A stretch of DNA of 64,000 nt from a virus (Duplodnaviria > Caudoviricetes), in the IMG/VR virus record IMGVR_UViG_2974613666_000001, positions 32,001 through 96,000 of that record, one strand, 5' to 3'. The number at the start of each line of letters is the position of its first letter. The stretch's first letter is position 1. This document shows, piece after piece, positions 10,049 through 63,153 of the stretch. The position numbers were made by a program, and so were the translations under genes. The notes beneath the pieces were generated by a model. That model had not been told where the DNA came from and searched no databases. It saw nothing but the letters and a program-made list of their open reading frames with translations.

Positions 10049-11236
10049 ATGCTTAATCTTACTTACACCTACAAATTACAACCAACAGCGAAACAGATAG
10101 AAACCATAGAGCATAATCTCAACGTGTGTAAGTCTGTTTGGAACTATGCTCTATACGTCAGAAAGCTCTGGTACAATAGCCGTAGTTGTAAGATTAACCA
10201 ATGCTCTCTATTTCAGGAATATGTTGTTGAACCTTTTGAGTATCCTAACTACCATACTAAGTCTTCTGAATTAACACTTGCTAAAAAGACTAATCCTTTT
10301 CTTAAATCTGGTAATGCCCAAGCCATGCAGCAGACATTACGTAAGTTGGATAGAGCATTCAATGATATGAAGTCTAGAGGAATGGGGTTTCCTAGATACA
10401 AGAAAAAGATGAAGTCTTTTAATTTGTTAGGAGGTATATCAGTTCAAGGAAATATACTCAAGATGCCTCTACTTAAAGAGGTTAAGTTTAGAAAGTCAAG
10501 AGAAATTCCAGAAGGGTTCAAGGCTAAGCAAGTACAAATCATTAAAAAGGCAAGCGGTTACTACGCTAATTTAATGATAGAGCTTGATGTTAATGTTGCT
10601 AGTCCTACACCTCATGGTCATGCCTTGGGGATTGATGTAGGTATTCAAAACATGATAGCAACTTCCGACGGGTTGACGCTAAAAAGACCTAAGTTCCTAG
10701 ATAAAGCACTGCGTAAGATTAAATTACTACAAAGGAAGCTTAAAAAGAAAACTATTGGGTCTAATAACTGGAGAAGTCTGCAACATCGGATTGCTTTGTT
10801 ACATGAGGCTGTAGCAAATAGGCGTAAAGATTACCATTTTAAATTAGCTCACCAGTTGTGCGGAAATTCGGGAATGATATTTGTTGAAGATATTAACTTT
10901 GTAGCTTGGAGCAAAGGTTCATTTTCAAAACAGTCTCTAGATATGTGTCTAGGTCAATTCTTCAACATCCTTGAGTATGTCTGCTCTCAGACTGACACCT
11001 ACTTCAGTAAAGTAGATAAAAACTACACTTCTCAGATTTGCCCTAATTGTGGAACTCACACAGGTAAAAAAGACCTAAGTGTGAGGGTGCATAAATGTTC
11101 TGAATGTGGGTATGAGCGAGATAGAGACATAGCTGCTGCTGAAGTAATAAGAAATAGGGGTTTAGATAATATTGCGGTAGGAACTGCCGTGATTAAACAG
11201 TCCAGTAATGGCGTTCTAGCGGGGACTTCGGTCTAG
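10049..11236 (+). CDS. tnpB: TnpB RNA-guided endonuclease (IS200/IS605, IS1341-type)
   Basis: N-terminal YKLQPT motif, RuvC GIDVG / FVEDIN / DRDIAAA, and zinc finger CPNC..CSEC. A right-end hairpin and TTCAA lie at 11276-11280. Confidence 0.95.
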   Translation: MLNLTYTYKLQPTAKQIETIEHNLNVCKSVWNYALYVRKLWYNSRSCKINQCSLFQEYVVEPFEYPNYHTKSSELTLAKKTNPFLKSGNAQAMQQTLRKLDRAFNDMKSRGMGFPRYKKKMKSFNLLGGISVQGNILKMPLLKEVKFRKSREIPEGFKAKQVQIIKKASGYYANLMIELDVNVASPTPHGHALGIDVGIQNMIATSDGLTLKRPKFLDKALRKIKLLQRKLKKKTIGSNNWRSLQHRIALLHEAVANRRKDYHFKLAHQLCGNSGMIFVEDINFVAWSKGSFSKQSLDMCLGQFFNILEYVCSQTDTYFSKVDKNYTSQICPNCGTHTGKKDLSVRVHKCSECGYERDRDIAAAEVIRNRGLDNIAVGTAVIKQSSNGVLAGTSV

Positions 11237-16036: not shown

Positions 16037-17320
16037 ATGTTATTATATATTAAGGAGGTAAGAAAAATGTTTGGATGTCAACAAAATCTAATTAATCCTG
16101 ACAAAGAAATAAAAGCGATACTTGAATTTCTTTGCAGTGAGTCCCAAAAACTAACTAATTGCGGGATCTATTATTCCCGGCAATTGTTTTTCAAGACTGG
16201 CAAAATCCCTAGTCGTGCTGATTTGCATAAAGAACTAGGTACAAGGAATTTAAACCCGCACTATCAGGCTTTTTACTCTGATACAGCACAACAAATCCTA
16301 ACTACCGTAGCTGAGTCGTTTAAGTCGTTTTTTGGATCACTCAAAGCCGTTAAAGCTGGTAAAGTAACCCAAAAACCTAAACTGCCAAAATACCGTAAAG
16401 GTGGTATGGCATTAGTGACTTATACAGGTCGTTCCGTAAAGCTTGAAAACGAATTACTGCGTTTCCCCCTTGGTTCTAAGGTTAGGGCGTGGTTTGGTAT
16501 TGACGCTTTTTATCTACCAATGCCATCAAACCTTGATCACAAATCAATCAGAGAATATCGGATATTGCCTAGAAATGGCTGCTTCTATCTTGAATTAGTC
16601 TATAAAACTGAACTAATTCAGGCAGAGGTTAATCCTAGCAATGCTTTGATGATTGATCATGGCATGAATAACTGGCTAACCTGTGTTAGCAATGTTGGCA
16701 CGAGTTTTATTGTTGATGGCAAGCATCTAAAATCTATCAATCAAGGTTATAACAAGCGTGTTGCGTCTTTGACGGAAGGAAAGGCTAACGGATATTGGAC
16801 TAAACGTTTAGCCAATATTACTGAAAAGCGTAACCGTACTATGCGAGATGCTATCAACAAAGCAGCCAGAAAAGTTGTTAGGCATTGCTTGGATAGCAAG
16901 ATTGGTACAATTATTTTTGGTTGGAATGTTGGGCAAAAAGACGGCGCTAATATGGGAGCGAAGACTAACCAAAAGTTTGTCCAGATTCCTACAGGTCGCC
17001 TTAAAGAAAGAATTAAACAACTGTGTGAGCAGTATGGCCTTCAGTTTGTAGAAACTGAAGAGTCATATACTTCCAAGGCTTCGTTTATTGATAGAGATTT
17101 TCTACCTACGTTCGGCGAAAAACCTGAAGGGTGGAAAGAATCTGGTAAGCGAGTTAAGCGTGGTTTGTACCGTACTGCTCAAGGCTATTTGATTAATGCA
17201 GACTGTAATGGCGCTGCAAATATGGGTAGAAAAAACGTAGCGGTGATGCTTGGACTAAATCTAAGCGGAATCAGTAGAGGCGATTTGTCAGCGCCTTTAA
17301 GACTTAAATTATGGTCTTAA
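16037..17320 (+). CDS. tnpB: TnpB of the clade with a rearranged RuvC-II and no Zn finger (likely start at 16067)
   Basis: MFGCQQNLI start, MIDHG, IIFGWN, EESYTSKAS and INADCNGA motifs. Confidence 0.9.
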   Translation: MLLYIKEVRKMFGCQQNLINPDKEIKAILEFLCSESQKLTNCGIYYSRQLFFKTGKIPSRADLHKELGTRNLNPHYQAFYSDTAQQILTTVAESFKSFFGSLKAVKAGKVTQKPKLPKYRKGGMALVTYTGRSVKLENELLRFPLGSKVRAWFGIDAFYLPMPSNLDHKSIREYRILPRNGCFYLELVYKTELIQAEVNPSNALMIDHGMNNWLTCVSNVGTSFIVDGKHLKSINQGYNKRVASLTEGKANGYWTKRLANITEKRNRTMRDAINKAARKVVRHCLDSKIGTIIFGWNVGQKDGANMGAKTNQKFVQIPTGRLKERIKQLCEQYGLQFVETEESYTSKASFIDRDFLPTFGEKPEGWKESGKRVKRGLYRTAQGYLINADCNGAANMGRKNVAVMLGLNLSGISRGDLSAPLRLKLWS

Positions 17321-17758: not shown

Positions 17759-20095
17759 TTAGTGATCCCAACCACCCATTATTAGACTTTCTGCTGATTT
17801 CTCCATGTCCTCATAAACCATCACACCATTACCTGTAAATCTTTTCATAGCAGCAAGCATAGAATTTTTTACTATTTCTGCACAATCTAAGGCTTGCTGC
17901 TGCGTACAAGTAGCTACAATCTCATCATGGCATATCAGACCTAATCTCAAATCATACTTGTCTGTAAAGACAGCCTCCTGGTAAACCTTTGCTATGCCAG
18001 ATTTCATGATGTCACTTTCTGTTTTTAACCAGACATTTGCGATAGCACCTTGGGGCATATATGGTCTTCCATCCCCTGAATTTTTGCAGAATACATAAGA
18101 CCGTCTCATGTACCCTTCTGTCTTGTTGGGACAGAAGTCAGTCTGCAATACTCCATACCAATGTCCATCAATTTGTATTTTTTTGTTGTTACCTTGCTTC
18201 CACAAGCTAGTTCTAAGTTTTGCAATTTCGGGGAAAACATCAGGAAAAGCATTTACCATTGCTTCACATATTTCCAGAGGTACATCACGCTTTTGACCTG
18301 TCTTGATGGTGTTCTGCAATGTTGGTGCGCTACCGCAATTTAAGCCACTGTACACGACATTTTTACAGCTTGCCCTTATTGGCTTAAAAATCTTTTGGTA
18401 ACGTTTTGCAGTTTCTATGTCTAAACAAGTTACTTTCTCGAAATGACCACCGTTTATATTACTTATATCTTCTACGCTAAGATGCCTATATTGCTTATAT
18501 TCTTCTACGACAGCAAATACAGATTTCATAGTTATCGCGTGGTTATCCAAACCATTCTCTTCTATGTATTTCATAGTTTTACTTGCATACTCACCGCTAT
18601 AAAACTTTGCAATAGCTAAGTGTGCAGCAGGTAAATCTTGGTCAATAGTATTAAATCCTGCTGGTGACTTGAAAATGTGTCTAACTATCGGGCATCCCAT
18701 TTTTACCAAACTATCAGGCATTTTATTTTCACTGGGCGGATTTTGCAGATTAGCAGCCTGACATTTGACAGGGTTTCTCTTGTTACCTGAACAAGTTCTA
18801 CCTTGCCCTTTACGGGTCAATTGCCTCACCCCACCGGATATCCTTGGTATACCTTCAACCCAGATAATCTCCTGCCTCACTTGCTTGCAATAGTTCATGT
18901 AAATTGCAATCGTGCGGAAATCTACAACCAACTGAACCACACGATGATCACCTAGTAAAGCCAAATCAGATTTACTACTCCCATACTTCACCACAGAGTC
19001 GATCACTTCATGAGTTTCCTGCTCTATCTCCAAATCATCCATATCCTCGTCATCATCATCCGCATCTACACCAGACGATCGCTTGTTAGCCTCAATCTGT
19101 TGGTTGATTTTCTGAACGATTCCCGCTATTTGCTGACTAGATTTGATATTGCAGCCTGGGTGCATCTTGACAAATTCCATCTCAATATCAAGTAACTTGG
19201 CTTGATACCATTTGATTTGCCTCTCCAATTCCACTAAATCAACAGGTAAGCCCCAATGGTTGATTTCTACTAAAGCTGGGGTAAATTCACTTTCTATTTT
19301 AGCTACAGTTTGCAATCCTGCTAACTTAATCTCCTTAGCTAAATGCGTGAATAATCGCTTGGTGTAGCTGATGTCCAGCGCTGCATAGTTGATTTGAGCA
19401 TTTCTTAAAGGTAGTGAGAAATCAGAAGACTGCTCGGTTTTATCAACATCTTTAATCTTCAGATAGCGCTCACAGCAATCTTTTAAGCCGTGGCGATACG
19501 TCAGAATACCTGCTGTCAATAGTTGAGAGAGGATCATAGTGTCATAGCTGATCCACATTTTGACACCCCAGTGAACCCGCAAGAATAGCAAATCAAACCC
19601 GATGTTATGTCCAATAAAGGCTTTTTTAGCTTTGGCAAACTCAATGGTCTTAAACTTTAGGTATTCAATAAACGCCTTATACTTTTCAGACAGTAAGGGT
19701 TTATCCCACTTAGTTTTAAGGTCTACAACCAGCACATCTTTCTGATGGACTGCTGAGATTTGAAATAGCCGGATATCACCATAGTAGGGGGATAATGCCA
19801 TATCCTGTAAGCCGTTCGTGGTTCCCTTTTTCCAGCTACGAGCATTAGTGGTCTTCTTTTTATAAGCCCCATTCTCAGGTGCGATCACACCATAAGTTTC
19901 TAAGTCAAGCACCACCAAGTTACTGCTGAAGCATTCGTTAACAAACTGATAGATTTCATCAGTTATATCTGCGTCGCATCCTACAAACTTTACCCAAGGA
20001 GCTAAAGGTTCCTGATTTTCCACTATTGATATACCGTTCTCAGCCCCGATGCTGGAGAACATATCAAGCTGAGTACCTGCAAGTGTTGCAACCAT
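17759..20095 (-). CDS. polA: Family-A DNA polymerase with 3'-5' exonuclease, divergent
   Basis: Exo motifs VLDLET, GHNIGFD and YAALD. Polymerase motifs GRTCS, NLQNPP, RHIFKSPAG, motif A D(LPAAH), motif B RxxxK and motif C CHDEIV. Confidence 0.9.
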   Translation of the reverse strand: MVATLAGTQLDMFSSIGAENGISIVENQEPLAPWVKFVGCDADITDEIYQFVNECFSSNLVVLDLETYGVIAPENGAYKKKTTNARSWKKGTTNGLQDMALSPYYGDIRLFQISAVHQKDVLVVDLKTKWDKPLLSEKYKAFIEYLKFKTIEFAKAKKAFIGHNIGFDLLFLRVHWGVKMWISYDTMILSQLLTAGILTYRHGLKDCCERYLKIKDVDKTEQSSDFSLPLRNAQINYAALDISYTKRLFTHLAKEIKLAGLQTVAKIESEFTPALVEINHWGLPVDLVELERQIKWYQAKLLDIEMEFVKMHPGCNIKSSQQIAGIVQKINQQIEANKRSSGVDADDDDEDMDDLEIEQETHEVIDSVVKYGSSKSDLALLGDHRVVQLVVDFRTIAIYMNYCKQVRQEIIWVEGIPRISGGVRQLTRKGQGRTCSGNKRNPVKCQAANLQNPPSENKMPDSLVKMGCPIVRHIFKSPAGFNTIDQDLPAAHLAIAKFYSGEYASKTMKYIEENGLDNHAITMKSVFAVVEEYKQYRHLSVEDISNINGGHFEKVTCLDIETAKRYQKIFKPIRASCKNVVYSGLNCGSAPTLQNTIKTGQKRDVPLEICEAMVNAFPDVFPEIAKLRTSLWKQGNNKKIQIDGHWYGVLQTDFCPNKTEGYMRRSYVFCKNSGDGRPYMPQGAIANVWLKTESDIMKSGIAKVYQEAVFTDKYDLRLGLICHDEIVATCTQQQALDCAEIVKNSMLAAMKRFTGNGVMVYEDMEKSAESLIMGGWDH

Positions 20096-20245
20096 ATTTT
20101 GTTAAAAGCAGTGAGTATTGTTTAGAGAGTCACGCTATGTCAGCTATAGCACTATATCGCATTGCTACCTGATATACGTTATTGACATTGCTGTAAATAT
20201 ATTCTAGCATTGTTGCTATAACTACCATAAGAGAATAAACCAGAA

Positions 20246-20596
20246 ATGGCAATAGCGATTAGAAAATATACCAGATCGTTCATAGACCTGTTGGAACTAG
20301 ACCTTAACCTAGATTTATGGGGCGAGGTGGTAGAAGTGTTATCTAACTGTCCCGAACCTAACTGGACTAGCCCAGAGCTTTATTTTGCCTATGACCGGAA
20401 TAGGATAATCGGTTTTATCCTTGGTAGCAACGGTTGTAAGTGCTATTACATATCTGTAGACTATCGTTATCGAAATCAAGGCATCGCCTCAGAACTGGTT
20501 AGGGTTTCTGGATTTTACGAACCCCACGATATCTACAACAGCAGTGAGGCTAGAGGGTTCTGGGCTAGTGTAGCTCAAAGTATGGTGGCAGCATGA
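20246..20596 (+). CDS. GNAT-family acetyltransferase
   Basis: ISVDYRYRNQGIASEL acetyl-CoA-binding motif and a C-terminal ARGFW. Confidence 0.75.
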   Translation: MAIAIRKYTRSFIDLLELDLNLDLWGEVVEVLSNCPEPNWTSPELYFAYDRNRIIGFILGSNGCKCYYISVDYRYRNQGIASELVRVSGFYEPHDIYNSSEARGFWASVAQSMVAA

Positions 20597-20928
20597 CCAA
20601 ACTTTCCCACCTTTACACAATCGCCCCCACCCATACACAACTGAATTTAAACCAAGCGGTATGGTGGGTGTGTTTCCTTCTTAAATCCAGCAACACGTAT
20701 CACACAGACATCAAAAATAAGTTACAGCGAGATTACCCAAACTTTAAATTGTCTAGTTGCATACTAGATCAAGCATTAAGTCTGCTGAGGAATGAGAAAC
20801 TTGTAACCACTACAGACCAACCAACAGGTACAAGAGGGGCAAAAAGAAAGATTTACGCGATCGCACCTGCGGGTCAATCTTTGGTTAATGATTTCGCTAA
20901 TTTATGGAGGCAATTCACCAATGGTTAG
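20593..20928 (+). CDS. pex: PadR-family winged-helix regulator, Pex (circadian period extender)-like
   Basis: YxTD..KL...YP.FKLS..IL..AL..L, RGAKRKIY and FANLWRQF align end to end with cyanobacterial Pex as I recall it. Confidence 0.7.
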   Translation: MTKLSHLYTIAPTHTQLNLNQAVWWVCFLLKSSNTYHTDIKNKLQRDYPNFKLSSCILDQALSLLRNEKLVTTTDQPTGTRGAKRKIYAIAPAGQSLVNDFANLWRQFTNG

Positions 20929-21121
20929 TATATCAGCTACTACATTAGACCAGTTAGTTAAATTAACCAAGTTAGACAGGAAAAATATACACCTTATTCT
21001 GGATACTTACCCAGAGCTAGTCAATAATGATCCAGCTACTCTTGATGTGAACAATCTGGCTGATCTCATAAATGACAACAAGTTTGACCTAGTAACAAGT
21101 CTCAATAAATATCGCTGGTGA
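20921..21121 (+). CDS. Small hypothetical protein
   Basis: Coupled ORF in an operon (MVSISATTLDQL...). Confidence 0.5.
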   Translation: MVSISATTLDQLVKLTKLDRKNIHLILDTYPELVNNDPATLDVNNLADLINDNKFDLVTSLNKYRW

Positions 21122-21125
21122 AATT

Positions 21126-21341
21126 ATGACTAACTTTGATTCGCCAAAACTACCTTACTGCTTACCACTACATTTCAAGGACTTCTATGGTAGCCTGACA
21201 GATGATCAGAAAACCTACCTGATCTCAGAATTAGTAGACAGCCATCCTCACAACGTTGCATCCTTTATTGAGAAATTAAAGGAATCCGCTAAACGTGATA
21301 GTGAACTACCAGATAATGATCTTTTTGATTGGGACGCATAA
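21126..21341 (+). CDS. Small hypothetical protein
   Basis: 71-aa ORF in an operon. Confidence 0.55.
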   Translation: MTNFDSPKLPYCLPLHFKDFYGSLTDDQKTYLISELVDSHPHNVASFIEKLKESAKRDSELPDNDLFDWDA

Positions 21342-21559
21342 TAATGTCACTATCTAAAGAGTTTTTTCTGAAAGTTAGGGCTAAGGCTGGTTTGGCAGTC
21401 TTTACCTTACGGAAGATTGCCTTGTACTACTCTGAATATATAGAAGATGGTGGGAGTGATGCAGATGTTGAAAGGTTTGTTGCTTTTATCGAAGAGAACC
21501 GGGACGATATTTTAGCAAATGTAAATCGCTACACCATCCTAGACCAATTCATAGTTTAA
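21329..21559 (+). CDS. Small hypothetical protein (likely start at 21344)
   Basis: ORF immediately upstream of dnaX. Confidence 0.55.
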   Translation: MGRIIMSLSKEFFLKVRAKAGLAVFTLRKIALYYSEYIEDGGSDADVERFVAFIEENRDDILANVNRYTILDQFIV

Positions 21560-21563
21560 AAAA

Positions 21564-23027
21564 ATGTCATTAGTAAATAAGTACAGACCCCAGAGGCTAA
21601 CCCAAATAGTTGGGCAACGTTCCACAGTAATGTGTCTCAAGAACGCTATAAACCGCCAGACTTTACACCCTGCTTACTTATTCAGTGGTGAACGTGGTAC
21701 AGGTAAAACTTCCACAGCCCGTGTAATTGCAAAGTCTTTAAATTGCCAAAGAGGCTTAACAACAGAACCTTGTGGAGAGTGCAGCAACTGTAAATCCATA
21801 CAATCTGGTGGTGCGTCGCTGGGAGTAAATGAAATAGATTGCGCCACCAATAACGGTGTAGACTTTGCCAGAGACTTGGTTAGCAAAATCTATTACGCGC
21901 CGATGTCCAATTACAAAGTTTATGTTTTTGACGAGGCTCATAATTTAACCAGACAGGCTTTCGACGCTTTATTAAAATGCCTTGAGGATTCAGGTAGTAA
22001 GGTAATTTTCATTCTCGTAACTACTGAACCTAACAAAATACCCAAAACAGTACAATCTCGTTGTCAGCACTTCCAATTTACACCACCTTCTCACAGCGAT
22101 GTTGTAAACTACTTGCGATCGCTCCTCGCCCTAGAAAACTTATCTGTGAGCGATGAAATTCTAGAGTTGATTGCTGAACATACAGATGGTGTATTAAGGG
22201 AGGCTTTAACTCTGCTGGATAAAATAGCACTGTCTGGTTTTACTGAAGTTAATGATGTTTACGAGCTACTGAATAAACCGCAACCTACAGACATTCATAA
22301 GTTACTTGCGTGCTGCGTAAAGCAAGACTATCAAGGTATTTATCGTGAACTGAAAGCCGTAAATAAGTCTGGTGCAGATCCTTTAAAAGTGCTGGGAGAT
22401 ATCGCCAACTTCATCAGAAACGCAATTGTTGGTTACAGTAAACCAGACTATAAGCTGATGACCACTGATACAACTACTTTTAAATTAGCTAGTCAGTGGG
22501 GGCGATCGCTTCCCCAATCTACTCTAGTTGACTGTGTGATCATGCTGCGTAAGGCTGAAATTGATTTTATAGCAGCTAAGTTTCCGAAGCTTTATCTGGA
22601 GTCAGTTTTACTTGAGTTATCTAAAATGATGACACTTACTAAAAATGAGTTTACATCTGCTCAAAGTAAACCAACAGTCAAACAGTTGCAACAAGTAGAA
22701 ATGGAAACTGGATCAAACCTAATAACCAACTGTTACTACAATTGCGATAATCCCGTTCTATTAACGTTACCTGAGTTTGAACCTGTAGAACCTTGCGTCA
22801 GAACTGCAATGCTCTGGCAACAGCTTTGTCAAACAGAACCGATGAACAAACTAAGAACTAAAATAGTTGAGTATCAATGGTATGAGCAGGATCTAATGAT
22901 TGTGCTTGACGCAAGTGTTGGTGCTAAACCTAATGTTAAAGAGTTAGCAGCATCAAGGATTAAAGAAGCCCAACGTGCGATCGGTATGCAGCCCTACGAT
23001 TCAATAAATGTGGTAGTGCATTATTAA
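21564..23027 (+). CDS. dnaX: DNA polymerase III gamma/tau (clamp-loader ATPase)
   Basis: KYRPQ..VGQ, Walker A GERGTGKT, Zn motif C..EPCGECSNC, DEAH and SRC motifs. Confidence 0.95.
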   Translation: MSLVNKYRPQRLTQIVGQRSTVMCLKNAINRQTLHPAYLFSGERGTGKTSTARVIAKSLNCQRGLTTEPCGECSNCKSIQSGGASLGVNEIDCATNNGVDFARDLVSKIYYAPMSNYKVYVFDEAHNLTRQAFDALLKCLEDSGSKVIFILVTTEPNKIPKTVQSRCQHFQFTPPSHSDVVNYLRSLLALENLSVSDEILELIAEHTDGVLREALTLLDKIALSGFTEVNDVYELLNKPQPTDIHKLLACCVKQDYQGIYRELKAVNKSGADPLKVLGDIANFIRNAIVGYSKPDYKLMTTDTTTFKLASQWGRSLPQSTLVDCVIMLRKAEIDFIAAKFPKLYLESVLLELSKMMTLTKNEFTSAQSKPTVKQLQQVEMETGSNLITNCYYNCDNPVLLTLPEFEPVEPCVRTAMLWQQLCQTEPMNKLRTKIVEYQWYEQDLMIVLDASVGAKPNVKELAASRIKEAQRAIGMQPYDSINVVVHY

Positions 23028-56138: not shown

Positions 56139-56253
56139 TTTTGCCAATATGTACAGTATGGAACACCTTAGTTATTTCTAGGGTGTTTTTCGCTCTTGAT
56201 ATAAGATAGCAGCAGTGCTATATTATTGAAATAACTTAAACAAGTGGAACAGC

Positions 56254-56568
56254 ATGAAACGACGATCGCTCACACAAACACTCAACTACTATGGACAATC
56301 ATGCTTATTGATGTGTGGGGCTGAGGCAATGTGCCAGGATCTACCCCGTCAGCTAGGGATTGATATGTTCATGCTTTTAAGCGAAATCAACCCTGATAAT
56401 TCAACAGCCGAGGATTTTACTTTGCTTTTACTGAGACTAATGAAGGCTTATCCCAACGTAACTCAGACACAACTACTAGACTTACACGCTGAGATAGTCA
56501 AGATTATTGGCGACTATGGTGATCGCATTTTGCAAGAAATAGCAGGAGGTCAACGAGATGTTAGCTAG
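56254..56568 (+). CDS. Hypothetical protein
   Basis: 104-aa ORF. Confidence 0.55.
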   Translation: MKRRSLTQTLNYYGQSCLLMCGAEAMCQDLPRQLGIDMFMLLSEINPDNSTAEDFTLLLLRLMKAYPNVTQTQLLDLHAEIVKIIGDYGDRILQEIAGGQRDVS

Positions 56569-62502: not shown

Positions 62503-63033
62503 TTATGTTTTGATCAAGTATGGCTTCTGCAATATTGGCAGGTATGCTTGGTAAACATAATGAGCAAGTAGAAAGCTTTCTGCCAAATTACTAGACTCGG
62601 CGATCGCTCCTCCTCTTTTTTTGCTTAATCCGTGGGGAGGGTAAACTAGCCCCATATTTTTAGCGAGAGCAATTGACAGGTTCTTGTTGGAAGTTAACCC
62701 CCATTTAGCTTTCCAGTCTTGCGGTTTAGCTGTAGCCAGATCGACGTGAGGCTCATTATCAATTTGAGCAATTAAATTTACAGCAGATCCAAAAGTCATC
62801 GCTCCTTTAGTCCCCTGGTTAAAGCTATAAATAGCCTCAGCCATAAATTTAATCTGCGGGTAGGTTCTAAGCCAATCAATAGTAGCCACAATGTTTACTG
62901 CTATCGCATTCTTGTACTTAACTGGAATTAGTGGCAATAGTTTTAGCTCCACTGTCCTACCTTGTTCATCCAAAATAACAATCCAACCGTCATTCACCTG
63001 GCTATCCATACCAGCAAAGTATATTTCGCTCAT
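62503..63033 (-). CDS. RuvC-like Holliday junction resolvase
   Basis: FAGMDS, FMAE, AMTFG, PQDWK and AESFLLA motifs. Confidence 0.75.
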   Translation of the reverse strand: MSEIYFAGMDSQVNDGWIVILDEQGRTVELKLLPLIPVKYKNAIAVNIVATIDWLRTYPQIKFMAEAIYSFNQGTKGAMTFGSAVNLIAQIDNEPHVDLATAKPQDWKAKWGLTSNKNLSIALAKNMGLVYPPHGLSKKRGGAIAESSNLAESFLLAHYVYQAYLPILQKPYLIKT

Positions 63034-63153
63034 TTATCTCGCCTGTTTCAACTATCTCAATACCATATCATAGCATTGTTGCTAGAATATACTAAATAAA
63101 AAAGACCGCAGCTAACAACTGCGGTCATTCCTTGCTGTTATTTAGAGGCAAAT

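Follow-up and report, generated by a model that had tools for sequence, protein, structure and literature searches.

Pex (period extender) is a clock-input repressor of cyanobacteria; it binds a negative element ahead of kaiA and makes the circadian period longer. Does a phage of these organisms encode a relative of Pex, and if so, does the protein act on the host clock or on the phage's own promoters? The question arises from one gene in a 64,000-nucleotide stretch of viral DNA (the window), which a sequence-only reading had taken for a Pex-like regulator that might shift the host clock, poison host Pex by heterodimerisation or time the phage's replication genes. The window covers bases 32001-96000 of a 145.4-kb virus record and is nearly identical to Nodularia phage vB_NspS-kac65v162 (MK605244), a siphophage of the genus Ravarandavirus whose host is Nodularia spumigena KAC65 from the Baltic Sea.

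A PadR-family gene in the replication module

The gene lies in a run of plus-strand genes that ends in a DNA polymerase III subunit gene and faces away from a polymerase gene on the other strand (window coordinates):

17759-20095, minus strand: family-A DNA polymerase (polA), divergent from the pex-like run
20246-20596, plus strand: GNAT acetyltransferase gene, first of the run (MK605244 gp070)
20593-20928, plus strand: pex-like PadR-family winged helix-turn-helix (wHTH) gene, open reading frame of 111 aa (P0001)
20921-21559, plus strand: three small ORFs of unknown function that separate the pex-like gene from dnaX (MK605244 gp072-gp074)
21564-23027, plus strand: DNA polymerase III gamma/tau (dnaX-like) gene, on the same strand as the pex-like gene

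The Pfam PadR model (PF03551) matches residues 29-96 of the protein with 30.1 bits (cut-off 27; E 5e-7), and a six-frame search of the phage genome returned this gene as the only PadR match (30.4 bits). Its counterpart in MK605244, gp071, is 99% identical and is labelled in GenBank only as "PadR family transcriptional regulator". The AF2 model (pLDDT 92) has its elements in the order H-H-H-H-E-E-H, and Foldseek relates it with probability 1.0 to many PadR structures; model and search together show the architecture of PadR subfamily 2, a winged-helix fold followed by a C-terminal dimerisation helix. We propose, as the best explanation, that the product of the gene is a dimeric PadR subfamily-2 winged-helix DNA-binding protein.

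Purifying selection acts on the gene: its dN/dS is 0.07 at a dS of 0.86 relative to a homologue of 88% identity on the metagenomic contig L086. At this synonymous distance the two proteins do not differ anywhere between residues 35 and 95, a stretch that spans the entire wHTH. A chance reading frame at 20593-20928 was rejected because of the low dN/dS.

The start codon of the pex-like gene overlaps the stop codon of the GNAT gene, and no terminator is predicted between the pex-like and dnaX-like genes. Two starting points of the sequence-only reading hold: the open frame encodes a 111-aa PadR-type wHTH protein with a Pfam score above the cut-off, and it sits in a run that leads from the GNAT gene through the pex-like gene and three small ORFs to dnaX and that is divergent from polA.

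The phage also carries TnpB/IS605-type elements, at window positions 16037-17320 and 10049-11236. Copies of this DNA with 65-75% identity are scattered through many cyanobacterial genomes; near-identical copies of it, or of a 20-kb phage segment, were absent from the cyanobacterial genomes sampled, where the closest stretch reached 83% over 313 bp.

The phage protein is specifically Pex-like

A phmmer search of the PDB with P0001 ranked three Pex entries first (2e1n and 2zfw from Synechococcus elongatus, 2dql from Anabaena), with E-values of 6e-11 to 9e-11 over ~97 aligned residues, while the next match, a generic PadR protein, had an E-value of 0.04. Searching 1.84 billion representative proteins gave 22 matches at E < 1e-3, all of which bear Pex signatures on inspection and alignment. 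When 61 cyanobacterial genomes, sampled from one order, were searched, 33 yielded a single strong match each (E 2e-13 to 4e-6), and beyond these matches nothing in the 61 genomes scored better than E 0.027. In five complete genomes whose PadR paralogues we mapped with the Pfam model, P0001 matched the Pex gene and not the paralogues.

Profile and tree agree with these searches. Scored against an HMM of canonical Pex, built from 89 unique cellular Pex sequences, P0001 reached 61.9 bits and its phage relatives 54-82 bits, compared to 5-13 bits for generic cyanobacterial PadRs. The split between Pex-like and PadR proteins received support of 100/98 in a maximum-likelihood tree. Profile and phylogeny were also among the checks that the sequence-only reading had named for its claim of a Pex-like rather than a generic PadR protein; that claim is borne out by sequence, profile, reciprocal genome searches, tree and predicted fold, and the motifs it gave for Pex agree with real Pex sequences, as the PDB ranking shows.

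Foldseek with the AF2 model placed Anabaena Pex (2dql) first, with a TM-score of 0.88 and an rmsd of 1.7 A over 108 columns, followed by S. elongatus Pex (2e1n; TM 0.85) and, next, by an LmrR variant at 0.69; since the alignment given to AF2 consisted mostly of Pex proteins, fold and sequence are here not wholly separate lines of evidence. Among the viral structures of BFVD the only good match was P0001 itself (TM 0.93; next entry 0.69), and the nearest clusters in the ESM Atlas are cyanobacterial, one of them named "Possible Pex protein". The N-terminal extension typical of Pex is present as well: alignment columns 2-20 hold residues in Pex and in the phage proteins but are gaps in two of the three generic PadRs aligned.

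Pex of S. elongatus PCC 7942 and of Anabaena PCC 7120, which belong to the same length class and have the same architecture, is thus the best match of P0001 in both sequence and fold (2e1n, 2zfw, 2dql). The two have in common Y8, L17/N18, V23, L30, Y36, T38, S54, A61, L62 and L65, and further R81-G82, R85, Y88, D100 and L104-W105. Other subfamily-2 proteins (LmrR, BC4206 and others) share with P0001 the PF03551 domain and the design of a single-domain wHTH dimerising through a C-terminal helix, but the likeness is weaker (TM 0.6-0.7, sequence E at least 0.04) and they are without the Pex-type N-terminal extension. These data confirm that P0001 is closer to Pex than to other PadR proteins, and a generic PadR identity was rejected on the profile, genome and fold evidence.

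The genome survey also bears on the distribution of Pex in the hosts. Several HetR-positive genomes had no match to the P0001 query, which found Pex in 33/61; Pex is therefore far from universal in filamentous cyanobacteria.

Relatives on other phage contigs

Pex-like proteins related to P0001 are encoded on metagenomic and cyanophage contigs:

P0002, contig L086 (metagenomic): 88% identity to P0001, same recognition helix
P0003, contig L004 (metagenomic): 46% identity to P0001
P0006, contig L005 (metagenomic): 30% identity to P0001
P0009, contig L128 (unrelated metagenomic cyanophage, with portal, major capsid, cement and NblA genes): divergent Pex-like protein, 33% identity

The gene order around polA recurs on L004 and L005: on both contigs a divergent family-A polymerase gene stands just before the pex-like gene, and a dnaX-like gene follows it. 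L086, a short contig, has GNAT genes (Pfam PF13508) upstream of its pex-like gene, which is not the first of its run, and the same small ORFs downstream. A further Pex-like protein, P0010, is encoded on contig L131, which has weak matches to tail proteins and is probably another phage contig.

Within 50,697 phage records, queries with P0001 and P0009 matched nothing but the Nodularia phage, and tblastn of canonical Pex against the same records gave no match. Scans of IMG/VR with the phage-clade alignment, the canonical Pex alignment, P0003 and P0009 returned no relatives, which, as these scans used short exact patterns, is weak evidence of absence.

Contig L128 carries a generic PadR protein (P0025) together with the divergent Pex-like P0009, at L128:403-786 and L128:5983-6342. 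P0004, a 364-aa match among the representative proteins, aligned over two stretches and by eye contains up to three tandem Pex-like modules; from its sequence, it would be a fused multi-Pex form.

Divergence from cellular Pex

The 89 cellular Pex sequences are strikingly uniform. Their recognition-helix segment L-S-D-T-V-L-Y-S-A-L-K-F-L-E, the wing G-R-G-R-P-R-R-M-Y, C24-Y25 and G73-Y74-W75-K76-K77 are invariant or nearly so; D55, T56, V57, Y59, K63, F64 and E66 occur in 89/89, and S60 in 87/89. P0001 has S, C, I, D, Q, S, L and R at positions 55, 56, 57, 59, 60, 63, 64 and 66, so that the helix motif DTVLYS reads SCILDQ, and the wing motif RPRR reads AKRK; neither of the invariant Pex motifs is found in the phage protein. 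The wing retains R81, G82, R85 and Y88, while R83 and P84 (both 89/89 in Pex) are changed to A and K, R86 to K and M87 to I. W-W stands at 24-25 in place of C24-Y25, and T-T-D-Q-P at 73-77 in place of G73-Y74-W75-K76-K77. The Pex residues replaced in P0001 are C24-Y25, D55-T56-V57, Y59-S60, G73/W75-K76-K77 and R83-P84, and across the phage clade six recognition-helix and two wing positions differ that are invariant in the 89 cellular proteins.

Mapping the numbering of Bacillus subtilis PadR onto Pex through a homologous cyanobacterial PadR in the alignment, we take Pex positions 55, 56, 57 and 59, by motif, to be the equivalents of His38, Ser39, Gln40 and Tyr42. In B. subtilis PadR these four residues contact bases, and the Y42A mutation lowers DNA affinity more than 100-fold (PMC5728393). 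The aligned positions hold D, T, V and Y in the 89 cellular Pex and S, C, I and D in the phage clade. Since all four base-contact positions differ, it is unlikely, judging from these residues, that the phage protein recognises the same operator as cellular Pex.

The tree places the divergence on a long branch. Four phage-type proteins form one clade (100/98), and the stem that leads to it measures 3.55 substitutions per site; this clade shares a polytomy with further divergent Pex-like proteins, and the tight canonical Pex group of 33 rows does not include it. A single clade of all phage-borne members was not rejected by the AU test (p 0.59), a result whose meaning is limited by the long branches. 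Relative to Pex, to which its identity is ~25-33%, P0001 is set apart by being phage-encoded, by its long branch and by its replication-module context. The protein is best seen as a divergent variant within the Pex lineage that is carried by phages, and not as a Pex orthologue. The best identity to any cellular Pex is ~30-35%, and recent capture of a host pex gene was rejected because no identity exceeds 35%.

A palindrome over the promoter of the pex-like run

The polA/GNAT intergenic region of 150 bp contains several palindromes and repeats, together with candidate promoters for both directions:

20114-20143, minus strand: candidate polA promoter CTGACA-18-AATACT, 9/12 matches, only a weak match to the consensus
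20153-20176: palindrome TATATC-N12-GATATA, between the two divergent -35 boxes, unique in the genome
20182-20210, plus strand: sigma-70-type promoter candidate TTGACA-17-TAGCAT of the GNAT/pex-like/dnaX run, near-consensus (10/12 matches)
20205-20218: palindrome TAGCA-N4-TGCTA, candidate operator, overlapping the -10 of the promoter of the pex-like run
56207-56220: second exact TAGCA-N4-TGCTA, intergenic, 47 nt upstream of the ORF at 56254-56568
63071-63084: third exact copy, repeating the 14-mer of 20205 without change, 38 nt upstream of the minus-strand ORF at 62503-63033

Near-consensus promoters, read by eye, are present at the corresponding place on L004 and L005. TATATC-N12-GATATA may have a functional role.

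TAGCA-N4-TGCTA is over-represented, and its placement is non-random. The window holds three exact copies against 0.09 expected (at least three occurred in 0/100 shuffles), and these are also the three found genome-wide, against 0.25 expected; each of them falls between genes, with a start codon 38-47 nt downstream. Extension with a weight matrix gave ~10 intergenic sites with the half-site consensus TATATTATAGCA, the full element being a 28-bp palindrome, TATATTATAGCA-N4-TGCTATAATATA, with an extended -10 in each half. Six sites fall in the window (20205, 49497, 50625, 56207, 58783 and 63071) and four beyond its end, at the window-equivalent positions 64429, 70472, 86672 and 98078 (adding 32000 gives genome coordinates). 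Like promoters, the sites stand 38-55 nt ahead of many unrelated genes, and several precede helicase or replication genes. This family is possibly a class of phage promoters or operators; the conservation of the palindrome may in part reflect promoter signal, because its right half doubles as an extended -10.

The element can be followed into one of the relatives. Upstream of the GNAT gene on L086, which encodes the same recognition helix, the TAGCA and TGCTA arms are conserved around a changed spacer, and a second copy lies further along. TAGCA-N4-TGCTA was not found in L004 or L005, whose recognition helices differ. At L004:4484-4505 there is a perfect 10+10 palindrome, AAGTTGTTTT-TT-AAAACAACTT, which abuts and overlaps the -35 upstream of the pex-like run and may be the counterpart operator of that phage. 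Covariation between operator and recognition helix is only suggestive. The pattern of sites fits an operator bound by a dimeric phage factor, with the pex-like run under its own control.

Candidate targets of the phage protein

We give about an even chance to the most likely reading, that the Pex-like protein regulates the phage's own replication or middle promoters. The protein has retained the architecture of Pex (N-terminal extension, wHTH and single C-terminal helix), with a re-tooled recognition helix and wing; under this proposal it would autoregulate by acting on the promoter of the GNAT/pex-like/dnaX replication run, and might also control ~10 promoters that bear TAGCA-N4-TGCTA over an extended -10. 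That the protein binds this palindrome, and that binding represses transcription, we infer. The conserved synteny with polA and dnaX in distant phage relatives and the palindrome over the gene's own promoter point to a role internal to the phage; since the DNA-reading residues are unlike those of cellular Pex and the gene sits in the replication module, phage promoters are a likelier target than the host clock. The timing of phage replication genes, the third alternative of the sequence-only reading, comes closest to this proposal. Several considerations tell against it. The palindrome could instead be bound by any one of the other regulators that the phage encodes: two XRE proteins, an Arc-like repressor, an RHH protein, a KilA-N protein or an antirepressor. 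Its conservation may also owe something to the extended -10 in its right half. The Asp at the equivalent of PadR Tyr42, a hot spot of DNA binding, could even mean that DNA binding by the phage protein is weakened. On L086, moreover, the pex-like gene does not head its run.

The same abundance of DNA-binding proteins in the phage speaks for a regulator whose targets, whether they are phage genes or host genes unconnected with the clock, do not carry the palindrome, which would then be another factor's site or a promoter signature. L004 and L005, which keep the pex-like gene without the palindrome, fit this alternative too, but their recognition helices also differ and therefore different operators are expected there, and a site on the promoter of a regulator's own gene is typical of autoregulation; we regard the alternative as doubtful. 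A small chance remains with a replication-linked DNA binder, acting at an origin, iteron or terminus, instead of a transcription factor. Non-transcriptional proteins of this kind are known, as the PadR-like AspA binds centromeres (PMC5728393) and the replication terminator protein RTP is structurally related to the PadR fold (PMC3506622), and both the conserved position of the gene in the replication module, adjoining polA and dnaX, and the several palindromes and repeats of the intergenic region would suit such a role. The palindrome's promoter-like positions 38-55 nt before many unrelated genes are, however, better explained by transcription.

A direct action on the clock, in which the phage protein would behave as Pex at the upstream element of kaiA or at other Pex targets and so shift or lock the host rhythm, seems improbable. 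Its appeal lies in the specific kinship of P0001 with Pex, a regulator described as exclusive to cyanobacteria (PMC5520375), and in the recurrence of Pex-like genes on L128 and probably L131, which hints at a host-directed advantage. However, the four positions aligned with the base contacts of PadR (PMC5728393) are unlike the invariant residues of cellular Pex, and the low identity to any cellular Pex (~30-35%) argues against a recent capture from the host. Deletion of pex shortens the period by only ~1 h, a modest phenotype (PMC12000584), and infection of S. elongatus by phage AS-1 was reported to be unaffected by deletions of host clock genes (PMC6628666). A search of the phage genome for kaiA-, kaiB- and kaiC-like genes, including KaiC-type ATPases, found none. 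Binding to kaiA and a shift of the host clock by the phage protein found no support in this analysis, and the changed DNA-reading residues weaken the case for them.

Inactivation or re-targeting of host Pex, by heterodimerisation through the conserved C-terminal helix, is highly improbable in our assessment. The hydrophobic face of this helix is common to canonical Pex and the phage protein (D100, L/F101, L104, W105, Y/F108), and subfamily-2 PadR proteins dimerise mainly through their C-terminal helix (PMC5728393); on the other side, the helix-1 positions C24 and Y25, invariant in Pex, are W-W in the phage clade, and the strong constraint on wing and recognition helix would not be expected of a pure poison subunit. 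There is, finally, a slim prospect that cyanophages more broadly (the Ravarandavirus type, L128 and probably L131) captured and diversified Pex and thereby couple to, or interfere with, the host Pex/KaiA circuit. If captured Pex proteins did act on host Pex targets or by heterodimerisation, they would be the first virus-encoded modifiers of a circadian clock.

A phage-borne Pex lineage and its meaning

By analogy, the logic proposed for the phage protein resembles that of repressors of the lambda CI/Cro type, in that a small dimeric binder would act on a palindrome over the -10 of its own transcription unit, in a region of divergent promoters; their fold is different, the Nodularia phage is described as lytic, and binding is here only proposed.

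The kinship of the phage gene with Pex is real, and its report is apparently new, as a full-text literature search for a viral or phage homologue of Pex found none. A phage-borne Pex lineage provides a natural experiment in how DNA specificity can shift on the Pex scaffold, and the gene offers a concrete, cheap test of whether any cyanophage touches the clock of its host. Even a conservative reading leaves the gene and the repeated 28-bp palindrome as a candidate regulator-operator pair that would serve replication or middle genes in a bloom-relevant phage of the Baltic Sea.
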